A DNA stretch of 64,000 nt from a phage: sequence record PZ171032.1; one strand, 5' to 3'. The notes under the pieces were generated by a model that saw nothing but the letters and a program-made list of their open reading frames with translations, was not told where the DNA came from and ran no database searches. Positions 3,047-64,000 of this stretch are shown piece by piece (the stretch's first letter is position 1; each line of letters opens with the position of its first letter). A program made the translations under genes and the position numbers.

Positions 3047-4413
3047 ACGTCCCCCTCTTCGGCTCTGGTTTCAAAATCTTTCCTGACAATTTTGTCTAAG
3101 TCAGGGAATGTTGTATTGTAAAACTCTACGACTCGCGGGTCAACAATAATGTCAACTTCTCTTAGTGGACGCAACAAGTTTATTCCTTGTATTGTCTTAA
3201 CTCTGCTCAAAGCGACATACGTCATCCCAGGAGAGAAAGCTCCGTTCTTTCCAAGGTCTAGGTTGTAACAATCTAGCGTAAGTCCTTGACTTTTATGAGA
3301 TGTTACGGCGTACCCAGATTTCAGAGGAAGTTGCTTGTATGACCCAATCACTACCCTCTCTATAAACTTCTCCATCTTCCTTTCTGCAATGTTGTATCTC
3401 TGAGATGGCTTATACTCGTTATTCTCCCACAACCTCTGCTCTATGTCAACCTGTGTTCCATCTTCAAGCTCTACCACCACCGCCTTGTTCTTAAATTTAA
3501 CAATTGTGGCACGTGTTCCGTTAACATAATAAGGTACTTTGTGCGTCGGGTCAACATCGTTGGCGGTTATCATAACTTTCATGCCAATTTTCAACTTCAT
3601 CTCCTGCTCAACTGGCAGGGTGGAGGGAAACTTACCCTTCATTTCCCCAGTGTATACCTTCTCCGGGGCGTTGATGGCATCATAGAACCTTCTGTTCACT
3701 TCCTCTGCTTGTTTGTTGGTGGCGCAAATTGTGAGAGCGTCTGTTGGTACACCGCCTTTGTAACAGCGAGCATTAAGTTCTGCTACAACCTCTTTTATGC
3801 GACGACCCTCACGAACACAGTTGAGCATTGTGGCAAATCGAATAGACTCCTGTCGGAACTGATCTATTAGGGCTATGTTGTGGAGGTCAAGCTCTTTCCA
3901 AGATTCGGTATAGCAACACAGGTCTGTATGGTAGAAGTTGAAGTAGGCTTCCTTCTCCATAGAAGAGACAACAGGAGGTGCCTGGTAAAAATCGCCAAAC
4001 AATATGACCTGTATGCCTCCGAAAGGTTTGTCATTTTTTCGAAGGAAGCGAAGTTTCCTATCCATCTCTATAAACTTATCAGCACGGATCATAGAGATTT
4101 CATCGATAATCAGGATGGTAAATGCCTTGCTTTTCAAAGGCTTTGCTGTTTTTGCCCTTATTGCGGTCCAGTCTGACTCCATGCTCACACCTGCTGCAAG
4201 ATCGAAGGTTCGGTGTGCTGTTGCTCCATTAACGTTTAAAGCGGCTACCCCTGTCGGGGCAACCGTTATGCAAGAGTCTCCATACATTGACTGGATCATG
4301 TTGATGAGGTACGTCTTCCCACAACCTGCGGGTCCTGAAACGAAGACATTCTCACCGCTCATGATTGCAACGAGGGCAGCATCTGTGCCTACATCATACT
4401 GCCCTTTTTCCAT
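3043..4413 (-). CDS. Dda/PIF1/RecD-like superfamily 1 DNA helicase
   Basis: Walker A 'VSGPAGCGKTY', Walker B 'ILIIDEISMI', and C-terminal 'SHKSQGLT' and 'YVALSRVKT' motifs typical of RecD/Pif1/Dda helicases. Confidence 0.88.
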   Translation of the reverse strand: MEKGQYDVGTDAALVAIMSGENVFVSGPAGCGKTYLINMIQSMYGDSCITVAPTGVAALNVNGATAHRTFDLAAGVSMESDWTAIRAKTAKPLKSKAFTILIIDEISMIRADKFIEMDRKLRFLRKNDKPFGGIQVILFGDFYQAPPVVSSMEKEAYFNFYHTDLCCYTESWKELDLHNIALIDQFRQESIRFATMLNCVREGRRIKEVVAELNARCYKGGVPTDALTICATNKQAEEVNRRFYDAINAPEKVYTGEMKGKFPSTLPVEQEMKLKIGMKVMITANDVDPTHKVPYYVNGTRATIVKFKNKAVVVELEDGTQVDIEQRLWENNEYKPSQRYNIAERKMEKFIERVVIGSYKQLPLKSGYAVTSHKSQGLTLDCYNLDLGKNGAFSPGMTYVALSRVKTIQGINLLRPLREVDIIVDPRVVEFYNTTFPDLDKIVRKDFETRAEEGDV

Positions 4414-4778
4414 TACGCCTCCTCGTAAAGAATGTCGATAGTGTTACCGTCTCGGTCAACCACGTATTCAATCGGGTCTCCGTCCTTGCGTGCTTCCGGA
4501 GCTACCACAATCTCATAGCGGCATGCACGGCACTTAGCGCTATTGTGTTGGTATGGCACACTAACCACATCTGCAGGGTCAACCATGACAGTCATTACAG
4601 TGCCGTAGCTCTTCGCATACTCTTTGCTGGCGCAGTGTAAGCCATAGGAGCACGCAGCTTCAGGATCATCCTCTACAAAGTTACGAGGCATGGATACAAA
4701 AGCACCTTGGTATTGTGGGACTTTACCACTGTGCCAATCCACCCACTTGCTACCGTTAAACTGAACCCTTTGTAGCAA
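4413..4778 (-). CDS. hypothetical protein; may be the frameshifted continuation of the 4673..5617 gene
   Basis: 121-aa ORF with TTG start, overlapping the 3' end of the upstream ORF by about 105 nt in the -1 frame. Confidence 0.4.
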   Translation of the reverse strand: MLQRVQFNGSKWVDWHSGKVPQYQGAFVSMPRNFVEDDPEAACSYGLHCASKEYAKSYGTVMTVMVDPADVVSVPYQHNSAKCRACRYEIVVAPEARKDGDPIEYVVDRDGNTIDILYEEA

Positions 4779-5617
4779 ATGATTCGACCATCTTCTGCAA
4801 TCTGAATATCATTGGCCTGCATAAAATCGTAGAGCATGTTTACAGATTTTGCAGAAGGATTGCGTAGCAGGCGAACGAGGAATTTCACATAGCGGTCATC
4901 CAGCGTTCCGTCTGCATAATCTTTCTCAATTTTCTTTGCAATGGTGGATCGCATCTCTACACCGTAGTAGTAGAGCTTACCATCTTTCATGATCAGGTTG
5001 TCTGCAAGTGTGGTGAACTCATTCTTGCGTTCCAGCCAGACAAGGATTTCACCAATTGCCTCGTCATATTCCTGAACAGAGATATGGTCGAAGACTTTCT
5101 GGTAAACTTCCTCACTTTCGCTGCGGCGAATTTCAAAAATGCCTTCGTTGCAGGTGATCTGGAGGAGTTCCCCACAAATAACTACCAAAGGCTCGATGCT
5201 TCGAGTTTGTTGCTGAGACACACTGCTCACCACCTCCAGCACCGGATCTTTGACTTCTACTAAAGGTTCTTCTGACTTGATTGCCACCCCAGTGAACCCC
5301 ACACCGTGAACAACACACAGTGGGTATACCACGCCCCAACGTTTAACGGAACCTTCGCCTAAGTCTAAGATCATGGCGTACTTACCATTATCTTCCAATC
5401 CATAGCGGAATAAACGGGCCTCTTCGCGGGTTTCAAAATCCTCACGGGTGTAGCAGACGCTGTCACGGTCAGGATCGAACAACTCTGGGGCACCCACTGC
5501 CAGTGTCCAGGTTGTGTCGCCTTTCTCAATGGCACATGTGAAACCCTTCTTCTCAAGTTCTGCACGGCGGTCTCGTGCTTCTTTACGGGTTTTGAAATGT
5601 TCGTAGATGAAAATCAT
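4673..5617 (-). CDS. hypothetical protein
   Basis: 314-aa ORF; no recognised motif; the last ~35 codons overlap the 4413..4778 ORF. Confidence 0.55.
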   Translation of the reverse strand: MIFIYEHFKTRKEARDRRAELEKKGFTCAIEKGDTTWTLAVGAPELFDPDRDSVCYTREDFETREEARLFRYGLEDNGKYAMILDLGEGSVKRWGVVYPLCVVHGVGFTGVAIKSEEPLVEVKDPVLEVVSSVSQQQTRSIEPLVVICGELLQITCNEGIFEIRRSESEEVYQKVFDHISVQEYDEAIGEILVWLERKNEFTTLADNLIMKDGKLYYYGVEMRSTIAKKIEKDYADGTLDDRYVKFLVRLLRNPSAKSVNMLYDFMQANDIQIAEDGRIICYKGFSLTVASGWIGTVVKSHNTKVLLYPCLVTL

Positions 5618-5627
5618 CTTGGTCTCC

Positions 5628-7610
5628 TTATTTGATGTTATTCTTTGTATCGATCAGTTCACGGTATTCAATCATAGCAGGAGTGTCCCAATATTTCAAG
5701 CCCACATGCTTCAAAAGTGGATATTTCTTTTCCAATCTTGCAATATAGGCCTTTCCGCACTTAACCCGGTTGGCGATTAAGATTTTGGCACGATGATTTA
5801 GCTCACTGTGCTTCCACGCGGTGTTACCTTCCCACTTGTGGAAATGTGGCCGATAATTTCCAAAATCCTGCATGGGGATAATTTTCCCTAATTGTCTATA
5901 CAGGCTGTCATATGAAGTTTCATTTGCTGCGCGAGTCAGTAAGAATTTCCAGGCGTCCTCTTTCAACAAATGTTCCACATTTTTCTCTGTAACATACTGG
6001 CAATCAGGATCAGTCCAAAGCAGACGGGATTCTGATACCAGGTACAGGTCTTCCCCTTCAGGAATCTGGAGTGCCGCACGCACACGGTCATAATTTTGCT
6101 GGTAGATGTTACTCAGCTGTCCCAGCCAACAACTTCCACGTTGGATATCGCCCTCATAAGGAATGCAGTGCTTAATCTTCTTGAACTCTGCCTTAGTAAT
6201 ACGTTCACGACGGAAGTAACCATCCTTCTCAAGCTTTTTAACCCAATAACCTGGCTCGTAATGAGTTTTTGTTTCACCTTTCTTCGCAGGTCGGCGAGGG
6301 AGCTCTGATAACAATTTGACCGTATCTGCAAAGAACGGGTGGTGTGCCGCTTCTTTAAACTCTTCCACCAAATCCGTGTTACGGCAATAGAAAACGTTGC
6401 GTCCGGTGATCTCGCTTAAGTAGTTACACTTATTTCGGTTATATTTGCCGTCTCCGTCGTTAAACACTAAGTAGACCCCTCGTAAGAACTCCGACTTTCC
6501 GTAGCAGGCGTAACCTATGCGGCCTTTATTTAAGCCGCCAGCGAAGATCTCACAATCTCCCAAACTTCCTAGTCCTGTCTCTTCCCATCGGTCCCACATA
6601 AAATTCTTACCGAAGATGTGCCCGAACACTCCACTGTTCTTCATCATCTCACGTGCTTCTGAGGATGTTTTTGCTGTCTCCAATTCCGCAACAACTTCTG
6701 CCCCACGAAGACGGATACCCTCTTTGACAAAAGCCTCCAACCGCTCTTGGAATCCACCATCGTCGTGCCCCTCTATGGTCCATTCGCGCCCAGGGTTAAT
6801 ATTGCAATCCCCAATAGGGATCTCTACACAGATTGCAGGGTAGTCTGTCAATGTTTCCAGAAACTTAGAGCGGTAAGGTTGGTGTCCCATCACCACACGG
6901 CTCTCATCAGAGCTGGTATAACCTTTCAGGATAGTCATTTTCCAACCATCTTTCTCGTAGCGATACTGCGCCTCAACCTTGTCACCTTCCAGCATCTTAC
7001 TGGTCATAGGGTCGGTAACGGTAAACGGAAACTTTGCATAGCGTAGGCATGACGCAATAGCAGTGCGATATTTCAGAATATGCTCTTTCTTAACATGGAA
7101 CTGAACTTTTACCCCGTTGTGCTCTTCAGTCTTTCGCTCGCGGATCTTGGTAACGTTTGGGATACCCTGATCCAAGAACAATAGATATGTGCTTTCAACA
7201 CCATTGTGTACACTGATCACATCGAAAGTGTCCACCATGCTGAACGGGGCCTTTGAACCAACACCTTTATTACCCACCAGAGCGTTGCTGTTGCGCTTGG
7301 TTGACTCTCCGAGGTTCATGAAAGTGTTGCGGACCATCTCTTCTGACATGCCTAATCCAACGTCCTGCACAAAGAAGTATGGTTCAAGGTCTGTAGGAGA
7401 GTGAATGATGATCGGTACATCGCCCCGTCCAGACTCAACATGAGAGTCCACAGCATTGAAGATTGGTTCACGGCAGCTTGCCAGCACCTTATCTTCGTAA
7501 ATCCCTTTAATGATTAGCCCAAAAGTCTCTTTGTTCAGAGAAATTGAGCCCCTGGTGACCTCCATATTTCCAGTTAGCACTGCTTTAGTTTCATTACTGT
7601 TTACAATCAT
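5628..7610 (-). CDS. GHKL-superfamily ATPase, Hsp90-like N-terminal domain, with a large uncharacterised C-terminal region
   Basis: N-box 'EPIFNAVDS', G1 box 'QDVGLGMS', Hsp90-like 'NLGESTKRNS' and G2 box 'GNKGVGSKAPF' within the first ~130 aa; the remaining ~500 aa match nothing I recognise. Confidence 0.6.
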   Translation of the reverse strand: MIVNSNETKAVLTGNMEVTRGSISLNKETFGLIIKGIYEDKVLASCREPIFNAVDSHVESGRGDVPIIIHSPTDLEPYFFVQDVGLGMSEEMVRNTFMNLGESTKRNSNALVGNKGVGSKAPFSMVDTFDVISVHNGVESTYLLFLDQGIPNVTKIRERKTEEHNGVKVQFHVKKEHILKYRTAIASCLRYAKFPFTVTDPMTSKMLEGDKVEAQYRYEKDGWKMTILKGYTSSDESRVVMGHQPYRSKFLETLTDYPAICVEIPIGDCNINPGREWTIEGHDDGGFQERLEAFVKEGIRLRGAEVVAELETAKTSSEAREMMKNSGVFGHIFGKNFMWDRWEETGLGSLGDCEIFAGGLNKGRIGYACYGKSEFLRGVYLVFNDGDGKYNRNKCNYLSEITGRNVFYCRNTDLVEEFKEAAHHPFFADTVKLLSELPRRPAKKGETKTHYEPGYWVKKLEKDGYFRRERITKAEFKKIKHCIPYEGDIQRGSCWLGQLSNIYQQNYDRVRAALQIPEGEDLYLVSESRLLWTDPDCQYVTEKNVEHLLKEDAWKFLLTRAANETSYDSLYRQLGKIIPMQDFGNYRPHFHKWEGNTAWKHSELNHRAKILIANRVKCGKAYIARLEKKYPLLKHVGLKYWDTPAMIEYRELIDTKNNIK

Positions 7611-8107
7611 TTATTGCGCTCCTTGTAGTAGATATGACTCCCGAATTGAGCTGTCCTCTGCATCTTTTTTGCCCATTTCGGTCGTACTTTGGTCGTATGG
7701 TAGTGTGTTGCTCCACCTGTTATATCCATAGCCATGTATGCAACATGGTTGTTATTATAGACCTTTAGAAGCATCTTTGCAAGACTTTTAGCGTGATCCC
7801 ATGAATCTTTTTCTGTCACCTTAAAAGTTTTGCCGTAGTTTGTCCACGAAAACTGATTAGGTTGGTAGACAATCTTTCTTATAGTGTCCGGGTATTTGGG
7901 ATGAGATTTCCTGTTTAGGGTGGCAAACCCAGATGCCAGCATACCCATCGTGCCATCCCCTCTAGCTTCCCTGTAGATATTGCATGCTAGAATGTTTTCC
8001 TTAGTATCTGATGGCTTGCAAGTATGGTATACTTTTTGTTTTGGTGCTGCAACAACAGGCAGCGATAAAAATGCGCTCAAAATAATAGCAAAGATCTTAA
8101 TTTTCAC
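7607..8107 (-). CDS. secreted cell-wall hydrolase, SleB-type (Hydrolase_2 family); candidate endolysin
   Basis: N-terminal signal peptide 'MKIKIFAIILSAFLSLPVVAAP'; 'NIYREARGD...LNRKSHPKYPDTIRKIVYQPNQFSW' matches the SleB consensus (IYxEARGE...LNR...P.FP.TI..V..Q..QF). Confidence 0.7.
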   Translation of the reverse strand: MKIKIFAIILSAFLSLPVVAAPKQKVYHTCKPSDTKENILACNIYREARGDGTMGMLASGFATLNRKSHPKYPDTIRKIVYQPNQFSWTNYGKTFKVTEKDSWDHAKSLAKMLLKVYNNNHVAYMAMDITGGATHYHTTKVRPKWAKKMQRTAQFGSHIYYKERNK

Positions 8108-8127
8108 AATGACTCCAAATAGAAAAT

Positions 8128-8143
8128 CCCCGCCGAAGCGGGG
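8128..8143 (-). terminator. rho-independent terminator after the 8157..8537 gene
   Basis: ccccgc-cgaa-gcgggg hairpin followed on the minus strand by ATTTTCTATTT; the same hairpin sequence recurs at 34562 and in near-identical form at 40373. Confidence 0.6.
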
Positions 8144-12269: not shown

Positions 12270-12298
12270 ACTATATTGTGGAGTTAGAGTAAAGTCAA
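12270..12298 (-). promoter_or_regulatory. sigma70-like promoter for the minus-strand early unit
   Basis: On the minus strand: -35 TTGACT (reverse complement of 12293-12298), 17-bp spacer, -10 TATAGT (reverse complement of 12270-12275). Confidence 0.55.
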
Positions 12299-14858: not shown

Positions 14859-15122
14859 ATGGCAACAGAGTTAAAATTTGCATCAAACCGTAAAACTAAG
14901 AAGTATCTGTCCTCAGTAGCTCCAGGCACTGTGGTGATGTTTGTTGATGAACTTGGGGATGTGAATACAGCACTTGTTGTAAAATCACATCCTGCAAACA
15001 TATATGTTGGGGTATTTGACCTGTTCAGAAAGGTGTTTGTAGAACTGCCTCACAGTTTGGTTGTTACAGAAATGGATGCCTGCATAGAAATTCTTGGCGA
15101 AGTTATGGTGGAGGAACAATAA
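14859..15122 (+). CDS. small hypothetical protein, member 1 of a 4-gene tandem paralog array
   Basis: 87 aa; shares a G-T/E-VV...ELD.KI.ILGE pattern with the next three ORFs; GAGGAGG Shine-Dalgarno. Confidence 0.6.
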   Translation: MATELKFASNRKTKKYLSSVAPGTVVMFVDELGDVNTALVVKSHPANIYVGVFDLFRKVFVELPHSLVVTEMDACIEILGEVMVEEQ

Positions 15123-15385
15123 TGGCTACCAGCATTGTATTCAATTCTAAGGTGAAGAACAAAAAGCGTGCAGACAGTTTTCCGTGTGGGACCGTGGTAA
15201 GTTGCGACGGAGACGGCATTCAAAACATAGTTATGATTGTCAAAACAGGAGAACATTGTGTGTGGGGGTTCGATTTAGAAAATAATGAGTTGTACGATCT
15301 GCCGCCAAACATGAAAGTTACAGAGCTTGACACCAAAATTACCATCCTTGGAGAGACAAGCTATTCAAAAGAAGGAGGAGAATAA
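15122..15385 (+). CDS. small hypothetical protein, paralog 2
   Basis: 87 aa; start overlaps the preceding stop (TAATGG). Confidence 0.6.
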   Translation: MATSIVFNSKVKNKKRADSFPCGTVVSCDGDGIQNIVMIVKTGEHCVWGFDLENNELYDLPPNMKVTELDTKITILGETSYSKEGGE

Positions 15386-15648
15386 TGACCACAAAAATCA
15401 CTATCGCAGAACCGAAAGCTAACACTCAGCCTATCGAAAAGTTTAAGTGCGGTGAGGTGGTAACATTCACACCAGATAATGAAGATGCTAAGATTTTCGC
15501 AATGGTCACAGCTGAGTGGATGTGTGACAACACCACACAGGTTCTGCGTTTTGACACCTATCTTACCGATGAAATCAGGAACGACAAGATTGTGACTGGT
15601 GTGGATACTGAGATTGTTTTCTACAAGAGCTTTTTAGAGGGTTTCTGA
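15385..15648 (+). CDS. small hypothetical protein, paralog 3
   Basis: 87 aa; start overlaps the preceding stop (ATAATGA). Confidence 0.6.
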   Translation: MTTKITIAEPKANTQPIEKFKCGEVVTFTPDNEDAKIFAMVTAEWMCDNTTQVLRFDTYLTDEIRNDKIVTGVDTEIVFYKSFLEGF

Positions 15649-19391: not shown

Positions 19392-22300
19392 TTAACGAGA
19401 AAAGGTTGCGTAGGCTTCTAGACGATACTGCTGGTCACCAGGGAACATAACACCTATAGAGGCTGTCCCTAGAATCCTGCCTTCCTTTCCAGACTCCATT
19501 CTGAACCCTACCCATCCTGAACTCCTTGCAGCCTCGATGTTGTCGCTATACCCGAAAGTGGCAAGATCGTCAACACCAGCCCCAAACAGCAACTGAAGCT
19601 GACTTCTCGGAAGCCCTATAATTTCAGGAATATACGCACCAAAGTACACCATCTGCCCTACCTTAGGACCGCTGCCGTACTCCATCGGTTTGCTTGTAGA
19701 GAAAGTCTTCATACCAGAAGTACCTGCCGGATTAGGGTATGCCCCGTTTGTTGCTGTACCTATCCACATTCTCCACTGTGGTGCCATCTGTTTGACAGTA
19801 AAAGATGTTGAAGACGTTTTGCGCCCTGCATCATCTGTAACTACAAACTTTATGGTGACATTCCCAGTAGCTTTAAATGTTACCAGTCCTGTGGTGGCAT
19901 CCACTGTTGCAATGTTGGTATTACTACTTTCCCAAGTCTTTCTAATCCCGGATACGTTGGAAGGGGTAATAGAAGGTTCCTGCATCTGCAGTTTACCGCC
20001 CACAATCCCTATGCCGTTGCCAGGATTATACAGTGCACCAACCTCGTCTATAATGTTCCCTGCTTTGAGACTATACTTCCTTGAGAAATTGTAGGTTCCG
20101 TTATAAGTGTGTGTCCCTGAGAAGGTGACATCTGCCTTCCCGTAAGAGATGCAAACCAACGCATACTTCCTGTCAGGCAACGTTTCTCCAGTCTCTGGGT
20201 GAGTTTTACCTACCTGGAACACACTCGGGTCAGTAGAGTCGTGACTATCACTAACGGAGCTTGGACCGCCCATCAACTGTGACAAACAATTCCTTACCCA
20301 TGTCCAGTTATTATCGCTGGAGAAGTCCACAGTCAAATCAAACACAACCCACTCATTTGGCTTCCACACAGGTGTTGTAATGGACTTGCCTACACCACCT
20401 CCTTGGAGTGTTGCCGACTGTTCAGTGATCAGGGCCGCATAGGCCAGAGTTCCTAAACTCAGAGTCTGGCTTGCTGTCCTCACTACCTTAGAATCAGCAT
20501 CTGTGAAGTTGTTGATGATTTGGAATGTGCCATAAGTGTTTTTACAGGTAATTCTGGCGTTCAGTGTGTCAATCTTCCTCACATCTGCCATAGCAGTGTT
20601 AGACACAGAGAAGTCAGAAGCTTTAGCTGAGTTTGCCGCAACAGCAGGATCAACGTTAAGAGTTGCGTTGAACTGACAAGCAGGAGTAACCAGTAGCTTG
20701 TTATCACCTATTTGCTTCCATGAAACACTTTGAACAGGGAGATTCCATTTAATACCTGAGAAAACCTTAGCAACCCTTGGCCCCAAAGCTCCAGTCCTGT
20801 TGTCTTTACAGCACATAGACATGGTGATCGTTGACGGAGTGGCCTGACCAAATAATTGCTGTGCTTTTGCAGAGGACATAGTGTAGAAATTGTCCTTAAC
20901 AAACTCATCAGCAGCTAAAGATCCATCAGCTCTCCACCACTGAACCTGATACCCTGTTTTGTCCCAACCACCGACCTGCTTCAAGTCCTCCCAGGAGATT
21001 TCCAGATCCCCGGTGGTAGGATTGATTGCAGCAGTTCCTGGTGTTCCAGATGACCATATTGGAATATCGAACCACGCTGGTTTAACCGACTGCACTGCGC
21101 TGGGACCTATTGCGGCAGCAAGTTGCTGGCCCATCAATACGCGAGCATCTTTCACCAGACCCCACTCAATCATAGACCCAGAGTAACCTTCTTTCTTGTA
21201 GGCTGAGGATCCGTTCAAATGGATGAGTCGGCTTGTGCCAAAGTTATGTGCTCCACCACCGTTGTCGTCTGCAAAATTGGTTATGATTCTGTCCCTGATA
21301 TTTTTCCATGCCCTGCCTCCAATCTCGTAGTCATGGTCATAACATCTTTGCAGTGTTGTCCAGCAAATGATCGCCATCCTTCTACCATTGCTGAAGCCAA
21401 AGGCCTGATCGTTAAGCTCTCTCCACAAGTAGCAGTTGGTGGTCCACATGGCCCTATGAATGTTAAACCAGTTTATAGATTTGGCTGAGTTGTTCCACTG
21501 AGTCCCAGGTAATTCAGGCCATACTGCATTAACCAGCATGTCTTCTGTTCCTGCATCAACCAGGAACCCTCTCACCTTCTTACCCATGCCTACCCTATCT
21601 TTTGCAATCCAACTGCCAAACAATCTCAGTTTTGGACCGTAGACAACATCTTCCGGATGCTCAAAAGAAATATATTTTAGGTATATTGTAGGGTCACCAT
21701 AGGTGCCATCACAAACAGCTTTGTGCATGTTCTCACCAAGGTCTAGACGAAGTCCTGTTACAACTCTAGACGTGTCGGTGAATTTGTCTGTTAAATCAAA
21801 CTCATACCACCACCAACCTGCACCCAACAATACTTTCTTACAACGCTGTGCATCTGTATCAGATATTCTCTTATCGCCTGCAAAAGGTGAGTCAGCAAAC
21901 TGATAGTGCAGAGCAACCTCAAAAGGATGTGTGGATGTCCCGTTTTCTGCAAGAACTTGTTTACCTATCAGGTCGCACTTAATGATCATCACAACACGTT
22001 TGTATCCGTTTGTTACCGGAATTTGCATGGACATGGATGTCCCATCCATGTTTGATCTCAGTGCAGTCATGATGATATAAGGGTCAACGGCATTGCCCAA
22101 AGTCTCAGGACCGGGGATTATCTTATACTTCTTGACCTGCCCCATGATGTAGTCACTTGCGTAAGTTGCCTCATTCAAGCAAGATCCTCCACCAGGTAAC
22201 TCACCAGGTCCCCAGAAAAATGCGCCGTAACAGTTGTAGAACCACTTGTTAGGATCGTATTTATTCTTGAAGGTCTGAACCTCGTTGGCCTGTTTTGTCA

Positions 22301-28242: not shown

Positions 28243-28557
28243 TTACCTTTTACTATGCTCTACGAGCATGTGCAAAATCTTTTGTACATCGGCTCTGATG
28301 CCGGAGACATCTGTCCTGACATCCTGCTTAAGGTCGTTAATATCGGCCTCTAGCTTGCTTAACCGGGTCTCTATAACGGAATCAAGTTTATCTTTTGTAA
28401 CCATACTGTTTTTCACTAAGATGAGGTCTTTCTCCAGCTCATCCAACCTCTTGGAAATGCCTTTCCATTTGGTGTGCCACTGGTTGAAAGCCCATACACA
28501 GATCGGGACAACGGTACCCATGCAGATACCGTACAATGCCGCCAAATCCAACTCCAC
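28243..28557 (-). CDS. membrane-anchored coiled-coil protein
   Basis: 104 aa; N-terminal hydrophobic segment 'LAALYGICMGTVVPICVWAF' followed by a charged helical region. Confidence 0.5.
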   Translation of the reverse strand: MELDLAALYGICMGTVVPICVWAFNQWHTKWKGISKRLDELEKDLILVKNSMVTKDKLDSVIETRLSKLEADINDLKQDVRTDVSGIRADVQKILHMLVEHSKR

Positions 28558-60706: not shown

Positions 60707-61096
60707 TTACTCTTCACCAAGAGTCTGGACGTGAACTTTGTTACCCAGAGCTTCCAGCTTTTCAAGAACAGCCTGCTTAGCTGCTTCACCGTTAGACCCC
60801 AGCAGCTTATCTTTTGCAAAGGTAACACCGTGAACTGCAACAACCAGTTTATATTTCTGACCTGTTTGCAGAGGCTCAGCGAGATGAACTTTTCCTGCAT
60901 CTTTTACCAGAGCTCGGTCTACGAGAACGCCATAAACGTCTGAGCCATCATCGTTAGCGATAGTGCCAGTTTTTGTTACAACAGTACCAGCATGATGGTG
61001 CTCTGTCAGTGTAATTTCCATCTCTTTAAAATTGTAGCCAGCATCGCTAGAATCAACTTTGCCGAGCACGATATCAGAATATTGAGCGGTAATCAT
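60707..61096 (-). CDS. head decoration-like small capsid protein
   Basis: 129-aa ORF between scaffold and major capsid genes, the position of gpD in lambda-like head modules. Confidence 0.45.
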   Translation of the reverse strand: MITAQYSDIVLGKVDSSDAGYNFKEMEITLTEHHHAGTVVTKTGTIANDDGSDVYGVLVDRALVKDAGKVHLAEPLQTGQKYKLVVAVHGVTFAKDKLLGSNGEAAKQAVLEKLEALGNKVHVQTLGEE

Positions 61097-61116
61097 TTAT
61101 TTCCCCCGTTAATGTC

Positions 61117-62094
61117 TTATTTGTTAGATTCTGCACGTGCACGAGCAAGTGCTTTTGCAACGTTTTCAGCAAGAATTTCTTCTGCGGATTTTGCAATATC
61201 ATCCACAACAGGTTCGCCATCATTACCATGTTCAGTGGTGGCAAACTCTTCTTTGGTTTTATGCACCTCTGCTTCCAGCTCTTCAATTTTTGCTTGAGCT
61301 TTCTCCAGCATAGCTACGATAGGTTCGTTAGCTTTTTCCAGCATGAAGTCAACCAGGGTTGCATGATCTTCTTCACCAACAAAGCTTAAAGCTTGAGCCT
61401 TAGTCAGCATTTTAGCTTTTTCAACTTCAACCTGGGCCTTGATGATTTCTTCAGCTTTACTCTGGGTTGCTTTCAGCTCTTCTACTTGCTTCAGCAGATC
61501 CAGATACTCTTTAGTTTTGGTTACGTCCACCGGATTCTCCTCGGTATTTGCGGATTTTGCAACATCATCCACCTCGGTAGTTTTATCCACCTCAGCAGGT
61601 TCCTGTACCGCCTTGATCAGGTTCCCTTCTTTATCGAAGAGATCAGCGGTTACTTGTTCAAAAATCTGTTGTGTTTTTAACAGGCTGTACTGATCTACCA
61701 CACTAAGCTGCTTGCCTTCTTTTGCAGCCTTATGAATGGTCACGTTATCACAACGCTCTTCCAGCCATGCAATACAAGACTCTGCGTCAGCTTGCGCCCA
61801 TTCCCAATCAGGATGCTCTTTAGCCCAAGCCTCCTCTTCAATCTCAAAACCAAGCATGTGTGCAAGTGCTTTAGCATCATCATACCACATATCGAAGAAA
61901 CGACGCAGGTATTCTTCAAAACTAAGCTCCACAGTAACTTGGCGAAGTGCCTTAACAATATCGTCTGTTAACTGCTCAGGCTTAAGATCACTCTTCATCA
62001 AAAGAGATACAGGTCTGTTGTTAGCGCTATAGCCTTGCGCCTTATGGCACAGGGCAATCCCCTTCTCTTTAATAGTAATCGTTTTTTCAGACAT
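61117..62094 (-). CDS. capsid scaffolding protein
   Basis: 325 aa, acidic and Ala/Glu/Lys-rich with coiled-coil character ('KIEELEAEVHKTKEE'); directly upstream of the capsid genes. Confidence 0.6.
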   Translation of the reverse strand: MSEKTITIKEKGIALCHKAQGYSANNRPVSLLMKSDLKPEQLTDDIVKALRQVTVELSFEEYLRRFFDMWYDDAKALAHMLGFEIEEEAWAKEHPDWEWAQADAESCIAWLEERCDNVTIHKAAKEGKQLSVVDQYSLLKTQQIFEQVTADLFDKEGNLIKAVQEPAEVDKTTEVDDVAKSANTEENPVDVTKTKEYLDLLKQVEELKATQSKAEEIIKAQVEVEKAKMLTKAQALSFVGEEDHATLVDFMLEKANEPIVAMLEKAQAKIEELEAEVHKTKEEFATTEHGNDGEPVVDDIAKSAEEILAENVAKALARARAESNK

Positions 62095-63993: not shown

Positions 63994-64000
63994 AGATTGC

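Follow-up and report, generated by a model that had tools for sequence, protein, structure and literature searches.

A predicted Sec-exported SleB-type cell wall hydrolase encoded upstream of rIIA in an rV5-like phage, probably accessory to the principal endolysin

Among large virulent phages that infect Gram-negative bacteria, many carry a second, apparently Sec-exported murein hydrolase beside a conventional endolysin; the groups concerned are the rV5-like, PVP-SE1-like, Certrevirus, phi92-like and T5-like phages. In the rV5-like E. coli phages, this gene is already known as rV5 gp2, and its label "cell wall hydrolase" dates from 2013. LL12 gp002, the "cell wall hydrolase SleB" of A6-1 and the "putative cell wall hydrolase" of the BASEL phages are the same gene (166 aa, 98–99% identical). 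All these Vequintavirus orthologues occupy the same place upstream of rIIA and have the same terminator, t003, upstream.

The homologues of Certrevirus (CB7_83 and CR3_087) and Seunavirus (PVP-SE1 gp243) are 45–53% identical to the hydrolase described here and share its signal peptide, its catalytic Glu and the cysteine pair of H-x-C ... L-A-C-N-I-Y. A terminator hairpin precedes their ribosome-binding site, as here. In these sister genera, the next gene downstream encodes a small holin-like membrane protein, whereas the present gene directly overlaps rIIA. CB7_83 has been described as a protein with a signal peptide, conserved across the Vequintavirinae; its toxicity when expressed in E. coli was given as "data not shown", and CB7 was reported to be without rIIA and rIIB (PMC7344957). 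A more remote homologue is T5.083 of phage T5 (about 40% identity in the catalytic domain), whose signal peptide, MKAALLLVAALTFSFSSQA/SH, is of the classic kind. Its neighbours are early or metabolic genes, and the holin–endolysin pair of T5 (T5.041/T5.040) is located elsewhere; its cysteine positions differ from those of the hydrolase, and it has no rII neighbourhood.

Outside the phages, the catalytic fold and the E-x-R-G motif are shared with the SleB/CwlJ spore-cortex lytic enzymes of Bacillus (PDB 4F55 and 4FET). Bacillus SleB has a PG_binding_1 domain and a YpeB partner, neither of which is found with the phage hydrolase. True SleB requires the muramic-δ-lactam of the spore cortex, whereas the phage enzyme must have vegetative Gram-negative murein as its substrate and is presumed here to act on normal E. 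coli murein. Holin-independent Sec export of a muralytic enzyme is known from Lys44 of phage fOg44, P1 Lyz and phage 21 R. These are the sole endolysins of their phages, their folds are unrelated to the hydrolase, and they can be likened to it by mechanism only. Unlike them, the hydrolase coexists, in the relatives, with a separate cytoplasmic endolysin, and its signal looks cleavable and not SAR-like.

The DNA analysed here, referred to as the window, is a 64,000-nt (64-kb) stretch of phage record PZ171032.1; the features of the locus are listed in Table 1. The genome is that of an rV5-like Vequintavirus, LL12 being about 97% identical to the window; in rV5, the orthologous gene is gp2. It is a real gene under strong conservation. 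Copies at least 95% identical are encoded in 116 phage records, the gene is found in essentially all Vequintavirus records, and its GTG start is kept among orthologues. The protein does not differ in substance from these orthologues; compared with A6-1 and LL12, there is one Y/H exchange at residue 91. More distant homologues were gathered by an exhaustive representative search and an IMG/VR scan; a word-indexed search gave just 10 proteins. If the gene were a decaying or non-functional remnant, the loss of the partner small membrane-protein gene in Vequintavirus and the "Not Fit" score of the T5 homologue T5.083 would be accounted for. Nevertheless, a dN/dS of 0.03–0.04 (five orthologues), the preservation of the catalytic Glu along with 16 positions that do not vary, and a reading frame intact across the 116 records effectively refute this reading, whose likelihood is negligible. 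The gene is thus under strong purifying selection. The 166-aa protein matches PHROG 938, "endolysin" (E = 3.6e-27). This label, also used in many GenBank records, probably misleads both the mining for enzybiotics and the automated annotation of lysis cassettes.

Table 1. Features of the hydrolase locus in the 64-kb window
Feature	Coordinates	Strand	Remarks
Cell wall hydrolase CDS	7607..8107	-	166 aa, GTG start; rV5 gp2 orthologue, SleB/CwlJ-type Hydrolase_2
Signal peptide, aa 1-20 (predicted)	8048..8107	-	n-region MKIK, h-region IFAIILSAFLSL, c-region PVVA; predicted SPase I cut VVA/APKQ
Glu47 codon, putative catalytic acid	7967..7969	-	YREARGD aligned with SleB YGESRGE
Hydrolase_2 catalytic domain	7625..7957	-	Pfam envelope aa 51-161; fold and PDB match from about aa 38
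Shine-Dalgarno GGAG	8113..8116	-	Read from the sequence, 5 nt ahead of GTG; ribosome-binding site annotated in LL12
Intrinsic-terminator-like hairpin CCCCGC-TTCG-GCGGGG + ATTTTCTATT	8118..8143	-	Directly 5' of the ribosome-binding site; = rV5 t003
ATGA overlap	7607..7610	-	Hydrolase stop TGA overlaps rIIA start ATG
rIIA	5628..7610	-	Immediately downstream; PHROG 612, E = 4.6e-125
Nearest upstream leftward sigma70-like promoter TTGACT-17-TATAGT	12270..12298	-	= rV5 P010

A sequence-only reading of this DNA had assigned the protein to the SleB type, and the Pfam, PDB, AlphaFold2 and active-site evidence all agree with that assignment. The Pfam family PF07486 (Hydrolase_2) is matched over profile positions 2–100 of 100 with E = 4e-19 and 69.5 bits, the cut-off being 27. 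The SleB catalytic domains 4F55 and 4FET were matched by sequence (E = 4e-6), and the AlphaFold2 model (pLDDT 87.9) matches the same two structures only (E about 1e-5, target-normalised TM 0.74–0.79). Glu47 is invariant in both homologue alignments; the SleB residue aligned with it is the catalytic one of that enzyme. With the SleB equivalog TIGR02869 (NCBIfam), the protein scores 47 bits, far below the cut-off (236.5), and aligns at profile positions 83–201 only. An N-terminal peptidoglycan-binding domain is absent: there is no second Pfam domain, and the mature protein has just 17 residues ahead of the catalytic region. A literature search for biochemistry on Hydrolase_2 lysins encoded by phages that infect Gram-negative bacteria found no paper.

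The Sec signal, cleavable-looking according to the same reading, was borne out as a signal sequence with a predicted cleavage site by heuristics (hydrophobicity and the -3/-1 rule) and by conservation in homologues. The sole hydrophobic segment comprises aa 5–21 (mean Kyte–Doolittle 2.6 over 15 aa), Pro is at -5, and the -3/-1 rule is satisfied at one site only, between VVA20 and A21; cleavage between A21 and P22 was ruled out by Pro at +1. An 81%-identical homologue has PSFA/AT at the same position. The confidence of the AlphaFold2 model is low for aa 1–20. Homologues keep a hydrophobic N-terminus despite differing sequence. Since a hydrophobic or lipobox N-terminus is present in nearly all of the 78 readable IMG/VR phage homologues and in 138 of the 150 closest representatives, export appears to be a trait of the family. 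For the hydrolase itself, a lipoprotein was rejected, there being no Cys before residue 30. According to this heuristic prediction, the n-h-c architecture with the conserved VVA/A site fits a cleavable type I signal of the Lys44 kind. The suggestion that the protein could leave the cytoplasm without a canonical holin was right about the domain and the Sec-type signal; holin-independent export itself is plausible.

The N-terminus might instead stay uncleaved, making the protein a membrane-tethered signal-anchor or SAR-type lysin that is released on depolarisation. SAR domains, such as those of P1 Lyz and phage 21 R, are characteristically Gly/Ala-rich and weakly hydrophobic. In other branches of the same family, as in L044 (MSGLAAVAVTLTMM), L034 and PaP1 gp029 (METLEALVLSILLAFIGMFLD), the N-termini are rich in G/A/T/M and lack an obvious site for cleavage, and cleavage of the present signal is a prediction. 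However, its h-region is strongly hydrophobic (I/L/F/V 10/15, A/S 4/15, no Gly), unlike a weakly hydrophobic, Gly/Ala/Ser-rich transmembrane domain, as judged by heuristics and not by a trained predictor. The basic n-region and the Pro and -3/-1 site described above, conserved in close homologues, also argue against this alternative, which we regard as very improbable.

The conventional lysis genes are known from relatives, and the equivalents of the endolysin, spanin and holin-candidate genes fall just past the end of the window. The lambda-R-type endolysin of near-identical relatives is rV5 gp89, LL12 gp90 or LysECP26. LL12 gp90 is a lambda-R-type lytic transglycosylase (PDB 1AM7, E = 3e-56), and its equivalent position is about 77.2 kb. 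The Rz/Rz1-like spanins gp66/gp65 adjoin TerL in LL12 (equivalent of about 66.5 kb). A holin candidate is rV5 gp129 (78 aa, two transmembrane domains); beside the lambda-R-type enzyme, no holin has been positively identified. LysECP26, which is such an enzyme from an rV5-like phage, proved muralytic after purification (PMC9728275). The type of the canonical endolysin differs across the subfamily and T5 (lambda-R type, GH19 and M15), and the SleB-like gene is constant. The location of the hydrolase among non-structural genes is uninformative, since the canonical endolysin gene itself has DNA-metabolism genes as neighbours.

A principal endolysin would be a cytoplasmic enzyme with no export signal and a dedicated lysis hydrolase linked to a holin or spanins. 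The hydrolase has an N-terminal signal sequence, and the relatives carry a lambda-R-type endolysin and spanins elsewhere; the window itself contains no holin or spanin. The hypothesis of a signal-dependent endolysin is supported in part, by the Sec-type signal and the domain, and weakened by the lambda-R-type endolysin, spanins and holin candidate of the relatives. Judging from the sequence, the protein is probably a Sec-exported accessory lytic transglycosylase that weakens the wall or assists lysis, and not the principal endolysin.

The gene belongs to a leftward unit that includes replication genes and those for a MoxR ATPase, rIIA, rIIB and a helicase; about 11 kb separates it from the late tail-fibre unit, which begins at 19392. 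Its description as an early-region gene remote from the structural genes agrees with this arrangement, "early" being deduced from position only. It is also correct for the 64-kb window that no holin or spanin is adjacent: among about 70 likely genes, there is no small protein with two or three transmembrane domains. Between the SleB-like gene and rIIA, the Seunavirus-like and Certrevirus loci that were inspected contain a small ORF with one or two transmembrane domains and a basic tail; locus L015 has none. A phmmer search (E ≤ 10) found no homologue of this small membrane protein in any ORF of LL12 or of the window.

The position of the terminator is kept in the sister genera with different stem sequences and compensatory stem changes. 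Transcripts from the nearest upstream leftward promoter must read through this hairpin to reach the hydrolase gene; between the terminator and the hydrolase start, no promoter was found in the sequence, and Table S4 of the rV5 paper also lists none after t003. The gene would be transcribed with the leftward non-structural unit, and its output is probably low, given the GTG start and the need for terminator read-through. Translational coupling of the hydrolase to rIIA through the ATGA overlap is possible. A transcriptomic study of a Vequintavirus was not found in the literature.

The small holin-like gene beside the SleB-like gene in the sister genera argues for a lysis-related role, as does the reported toxicity of CB7_83 in E. 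coli. The holin-like gene could even indicate that the hydrolase is a true Sec-dependent endolysin or co-endolysin and part of the lysis module, like Lys44 of the Oenococcus phage fOg44. The enzyme would be exported all through the infection, stay inactive for as long as the membrane is energised and be freed when the holin collapses the proton-motive force. Its signal peptide and muralytic domain, the "endolysin" label of homologues in many records and the lack of a positively identified holin next to the lambda-R-type enzyme are in line with this, as is the direct downstream position of the holin-like gene in the sister genera, CB7_82/CB7_83 included (PMC7344957). On the other hand, Vequintavirus has no such adjacent gene, nor a homologue of it in LL12 or the window, and the relatives have the full conventional set of a cytoplasmic endolysin, spanins and a holin candidate with two transmembrane domains. 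The gene stands behind a terminator and begins with GTG, and no latency mechanism is evident in a 146-aa single-domain protein. We therefore consider a (co-)endolysin rather unlikely.

The order SleB-like gene – (small membrane-protein ORF) – rIIA – rIIB is conserved. Together with the ATGA overlap and the location in a non-structural unit with a sigma70-like promoter, it could point to a periplasmic factor for early murein remodelling, unrelated to terminal lysis. It might serve to exclude superinfecting phages, to protect the cell from lysis from without, or to partner rIIA/rIIB at the envelope in counter-defence. In favour of such a factor, the rII genes of Vequintavirus EdH4 are needed conditionally, on RexAB+ hosts only (PMC11879866). 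Yet SleB-like homologues occur without rII genes in T5, Justusliebigvirus alia and PaP1, nothing ties the hydrolase to Rex, and neighbouring positions prove little when genes are packed as densely as in phage genomes. We know of no precedent for exclusion mediated by a muralytic enzyme, which also counts against this role, and we hold it to be improbable. Nor is the protein likely to be a periplasmic factor acting at infection, as had been suggested, since with a cleavable-looking signal it cannot act before its own expression. A virion-associated lysin is also unsupported: the main text of the rV5 paper does not name gp2 as a virion protein, and a text search of its supplementary files returned no "gp2".

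A further and quite unlikely arrangement is an envelope module formed by the deliberately throttled hydrolase, then no spare lysin, and rIIA/rIIB, serving lysis timing, holin-independent fail-safe lysis or counter-defence against exclusion systems that depolarise the membrane, such as RexAB. Terminator read-through and the GTG start would be the throttle, murein remodelling would take place in the periplasm, and the sister genera would add the holin-like protein. Of these variants, fail-safe lysis and lysis timing alone would suit the homologues without rII genes (T5-like, phi92-like and PaP1-like).

As for the accessory enzyme that we favour, Sec would export the small basic pre-protein, and signal peptidase I would cut it after Ala20 to release a soluble periplasmic enzyme of the SleB/CwlJ (Hydrolase_2) fold, with a predicted mass of about 16.9 kDa and pI of 9.9. 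With export and signal cleavage, it would reach the wall without a holin. By homology, the mature protein may be a lytic transglycosylase that cleaves MurNAc–GlcNAc bonds via Glu47. Principal lysis in rV5-like phages would be carried out by the cytoplasmic lambda-R-type enzyme with holin and spanins. If the hydrolase is soluble, active and made before the late genes, the cell would have to tolerate it. In a CRISPRi-ART screen, T5.083 knockdown scored "Not Fit", with no effect on fitness, but T5 lys and many known essential T5 genes scored likewise; the score fits an accessory role, though the screen is insensitive.

Finally, an antisense ORF (7510..7731, + strand, 73 aa) with two hydrophobic stretches was considered as a hidden holin and rejected. 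Between this DNA and LL12, 5 of its 73 residues differ, whereas the hydrolase on the sense strand differs at 1 of 166. With such divergence where the hydrolase barely changes, the ORF has little of the look of a conserved coding frame.

The rV5 gp2 orthologue in the window encodes a SleB-type hydrolase with an export-type N-terminus, as the sequence-only reading had claimed. Its product matches the Pfam family Hydrolase_2 (PF07486, 'Cell Wall Hydrolase') over aa 51–161 (E = 4e-19, 69.5 bits, cut-off 27 bits), PHROG 938 'endolysin', and the catalytic domains of Bacillus SleB (PDB 4F55 and 4FET, E = 4e-6), whose YGESRGE motif aligns with YREARGD of the phage protein. The AlphaFold2 model (mean pLDDT 87.9) is poorly defined at aa 1–20 only, and its PDB matches are 4F55 and 4FET only, with target-normalised TM-scores of 0.74–0.79. 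The SleB-type catalytic fold and the catalytic Glu are retained in a conserved gene product; Glu47 is invariant in both homologue alignments made. In the orthologue comparison, dN/dS is 0.03–0.04, with pairs having dS up to 0.72, and the gene is clearly functional. The enzyme would act as a lytic transglycosylase on E. coli murein. The protein is not an equivalog of SleB proper: its TIGR02869 score is 47 bits, the cut-off being 236.5, and it has no peptidoglycan-binding domain.

The sole hydrophobic stretch of the hydrolase covers aa 5–21, with MKIK before it and PVVA|APKQ after it. Heuristically, the -3/-1 rule fits only one position, after Ala20; cleavage after Ala21 is ruled out because of Pro22. 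A homologue with 81% identity has PSFA|AT at the same place. There is no lipobox cysteine in the N-terminus. Given its strong hydrophobicity and the lack of Gly/Ala enrichment, the segment is more probably a cleavable type I signal than a SAR (signal-arrest-release) domain. We infer Sec export with cleavage at residue 20/21. An N-terminal hydrophobic segment is encoded in nearly all of the 78 readable homologous IMG/VR phage loci and is present in 138 of the 150 closest cluster representatives; its sequence is not conserved, so what has been kept is the export function. The Vequintavirinae-type branch keeps Cys30 and Cys42 (motif H-x-C ... L-A-C-N-I-Y), a pair that would fit a periplasmic disulfide. 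Within the window, no other likely gene product has a strong N-terminal hydrophobic segment. Across the Hydrolase_2 phage family, the N-termini are, depending on the branch, classic signal peptides, lipoboxes (IIGC, LTAC, IAGC), or SAR-like or anchor-like segments without a cleavage site (non-classic types in loci L044, L034, L066, L025, L028, and L087, the last being PaP1 gp029). Thus, one catalytic domain is joined to three kinds of Sec-dependent targeting.

The sequence-only reading had also proposed a signal-dependent endolysin. The domain and the signal agree with this, but a role as the main endolysin is less likely, since near-identical relatives carry a separate conventional lysis set consisting of a lambda-R-type enzyme, spanins, and a holin candidate. 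The gene layout of LL12 is the same as in the window (LL12 coordinates plus about 5.6 kb give window coordinates), and its annotated endolysin has no hydrophobic segment. As for spanins, which the same reading had suggested seeking elsewhere in the genome, LL12 has an Rz-like pair; it is located beyond the equivalent of base 64,000, outside the DNA available to that reading. No small protein with several transmembrane domains (TMDs) was found among the likely gene products within the window. In another rV5-like phage, the lambda-R-type enzyme is LysECP26, which in purified form lyses Gram-negative cells with a permeabilised outer membrane (PMC9728275). The type of canonical endolysin differs among related groups (lambda-R in Vequintavirus, GH19 in the Vequintavirinae member KPP-1, M15 peptidases in CB7, Septuagintavirus, and T5), while the SleB-like gene is constant, a pattern that argues for a distinct, conserved role of its product and against its being the main lysin. 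This role would be an accessory one in wall weakening or lysis. The position of the gene among non-structural genes says little because the canonical endolysin is also located among DNA-metabolism genes.

Coordinates of features in the window and in related phages
Feature	Sequence	Coordinates	Strand	Remarks
Hydrolase CDS	window	7607..8107	-	166-codon ORF, GTG start
Shine-Dalgarno GGAG	window	5 nt before hydrolase GTG	-	read from sequence
Terminator hairpin	window	8118-8143	-	rV5 t003, deltaG -16; abuts hydrolase ribosome-binding site
P010, nearest upstream leftward promoter	window	about 12270-12298	-	rV5 promoter list
rIIB, two ORFs	window	4673..5617, 4413..4778	-	region 4413-5617
Three tandem ORFs	window	14859-15122, 15122-15385, 15385-15648	+	head-to-tail, exactly 87 aa each; rightward early unit
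104-aa product	window	28243-28557	-	weak N-terminal TMD, then charged region; inside tail-fibre gene cluster
Annotated endolysin gp90	LL12	71587-72057		close homologue of lambda R lysozyme, PDB 1AM7, E=3e-56
i-spanin gp66, o-spanin gp65	LL12	60847-61529		adjoin large terminase gene; both match Rz-like spanin PHROGs
Holin candidate, 78 aa	LL12	94058-94294		two strong TMDs, basic tail; counterpart of rV5 putative holin gp129
Small 1-2-TMD holin-like ORF	homologous loci	L010:6536-6691, L013:6482-6709, L012:6511-6744, L017:6528-6725, L089:3536-3700

The T5 homologue, T5.083, has a textbook signal peptide; its gene neighbours are early or metabolic genes, and the holin–endolysin pair of T5 is distant. 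A genome-wide CRISPRi-ART screen scored T5.083 as 'Not Fit', together with T5 lys and several known essential T5 genes (PMC11879866 supplements), and for this reason the score of T5.083 is weak evidence. The T5 holin was scored 'Fit' (T5 record AY543070; holin–endolysin pair T5.041/T5.040). Redundancy of lys and T5.083 would lead one to expect such scores, but essential genes already known are likewise missed by the screen.

The hydrolase gene belongs to the leftward transcription unit defined by the rV5 authors as genes 10-1-238-164. Its upstream neighbours are phrog_12338 and several small proteins, all without assigned function, a MoxR-like AAA ATPase, and a 126-aa acidic protein; on the downstream side are rIIA, rIIB, and a Dda-like helicase, followed in relatives by primase/helicase and DNA polymerase genes. 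In the related EdH4, knockdown of rIIA or rIIB matters on RexAB+ hosts only (PMC11879866). A terminator lies directly upstream of the hydrolase gene, and the stop codon of the latter overlaps the rIIA start codon (ATGA). The terminator consists of a hairpin with a perfect GC stem (CCCCGC-TTCG-GCGGGG) and a T-run (ATTTTCTATT); it ends 1 nt before the Shine–Dalgarno sequence. The rV5 promoter/terminator listing contains no promoter between t003 and the gene; therefore, transcripts must read through the terminator. The GTG start, found in all five orthologues compared, together with the overlap and the hairpin, suggests that expression may be low or controlled; it would be low-level and pre-late. 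A hairpin with a T-run occupies the equivalent place in Seunavirus-like and Certrevirus loci (L010, L012, L015, L016, and L017), with different stems and the same arrangement. The terminator position is kept across Vequintavirinae genera, and the stem changes are compensatory.

The order SleB-like gene–rIIA–rIIB is kept in loci L006–L012, L014, and L015. Seunavirus-like loci L008–L014 have a 51–77-aa ORF between the SleB-like gene and rIIA; in Certrevirus loci L016 and L017, it directly follows the SleB-like gene, and L015 showed no small TMD ORF of this kind. The small ORF encodes one strong TMD and a second one, which several loci have in a weaker or Gly/Ala-rich form; some copies also end in a basic C-terminus. 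The protein resembles a holin or pinholin, a partner that would tie the module to lysis. It is absent from Vequintavirus according to a homologue search among all ORFs of LL12 and the window. Conservation is seen in the hydrophobic frame; the annotation of PVP-SE1 gp244 follows an extra T and uses another frame, which is non-hydrophobic.

The hydrolase is already known and annotated, and its family is very large: 11,111 clusters built at 50% identity give a match at E ≤ 1e-3. A protein at least 95% identical to it is encoded in 116 phage records. Its names in GenBank records are 'cell wall hydrolase', 'SleB', 'CwlJ', and 'hypothetical protein'. In 2013, rV5 gene 2 was listed as 'cell wall hydrolase' (PF07486, 166 aa, pI 10.0; PMC3606486 Table S3). 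The Certrevirus homologue CB7_83 was described with a signal peptide and with homologues in all Vequintavirinae genera; its expression in E. coli was toxic ('data not shown'), and the overlapping CB7_82 is a candidate class II holin gene (PMC7344957). The annotation is repeated in papers on P7_Pc and on Septuagintavirus. Thus, neither the observation nor the proposal of Sec export is new to the literature.

Across 5 kb around the gene, the window shares 96.5–98% identity with the best-matching rV5-like Escherichia phages (genus Vequintavirus), including isim, MaxTheCat, A6-1, and EdH4. This region is also matched by 16 records named 'Campylobacter phage' (host: Campylobacter jejuni), two of which, MG065635 (C12) and MG065655 (C2), are 96.6–97.3% identical over all 5 kb. 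These labels probably reflect contamination or mis-assignment.

In the window, rIIB is split into two ORFs because of a 1-nt deletion in a G run at about position 4768 (AAAGGGGTTC in relatives vs. AAAGGGTTC in the window); in A6-1 and LL12, rIIB is a single 1206-nt ORF. The split reflects a sequencing error in the homopolymer, or else the phage is a true rIIB frameshift mutant. The three tandem 87-aa ORFs, annotated in relatives as hypothetical proteins, look like paralogues. The 104-aa product has a spanin-like or holin-like topology, for which the tail-fibre cluster is an odd location; its charged region may, at a guess, form a coiled coil.
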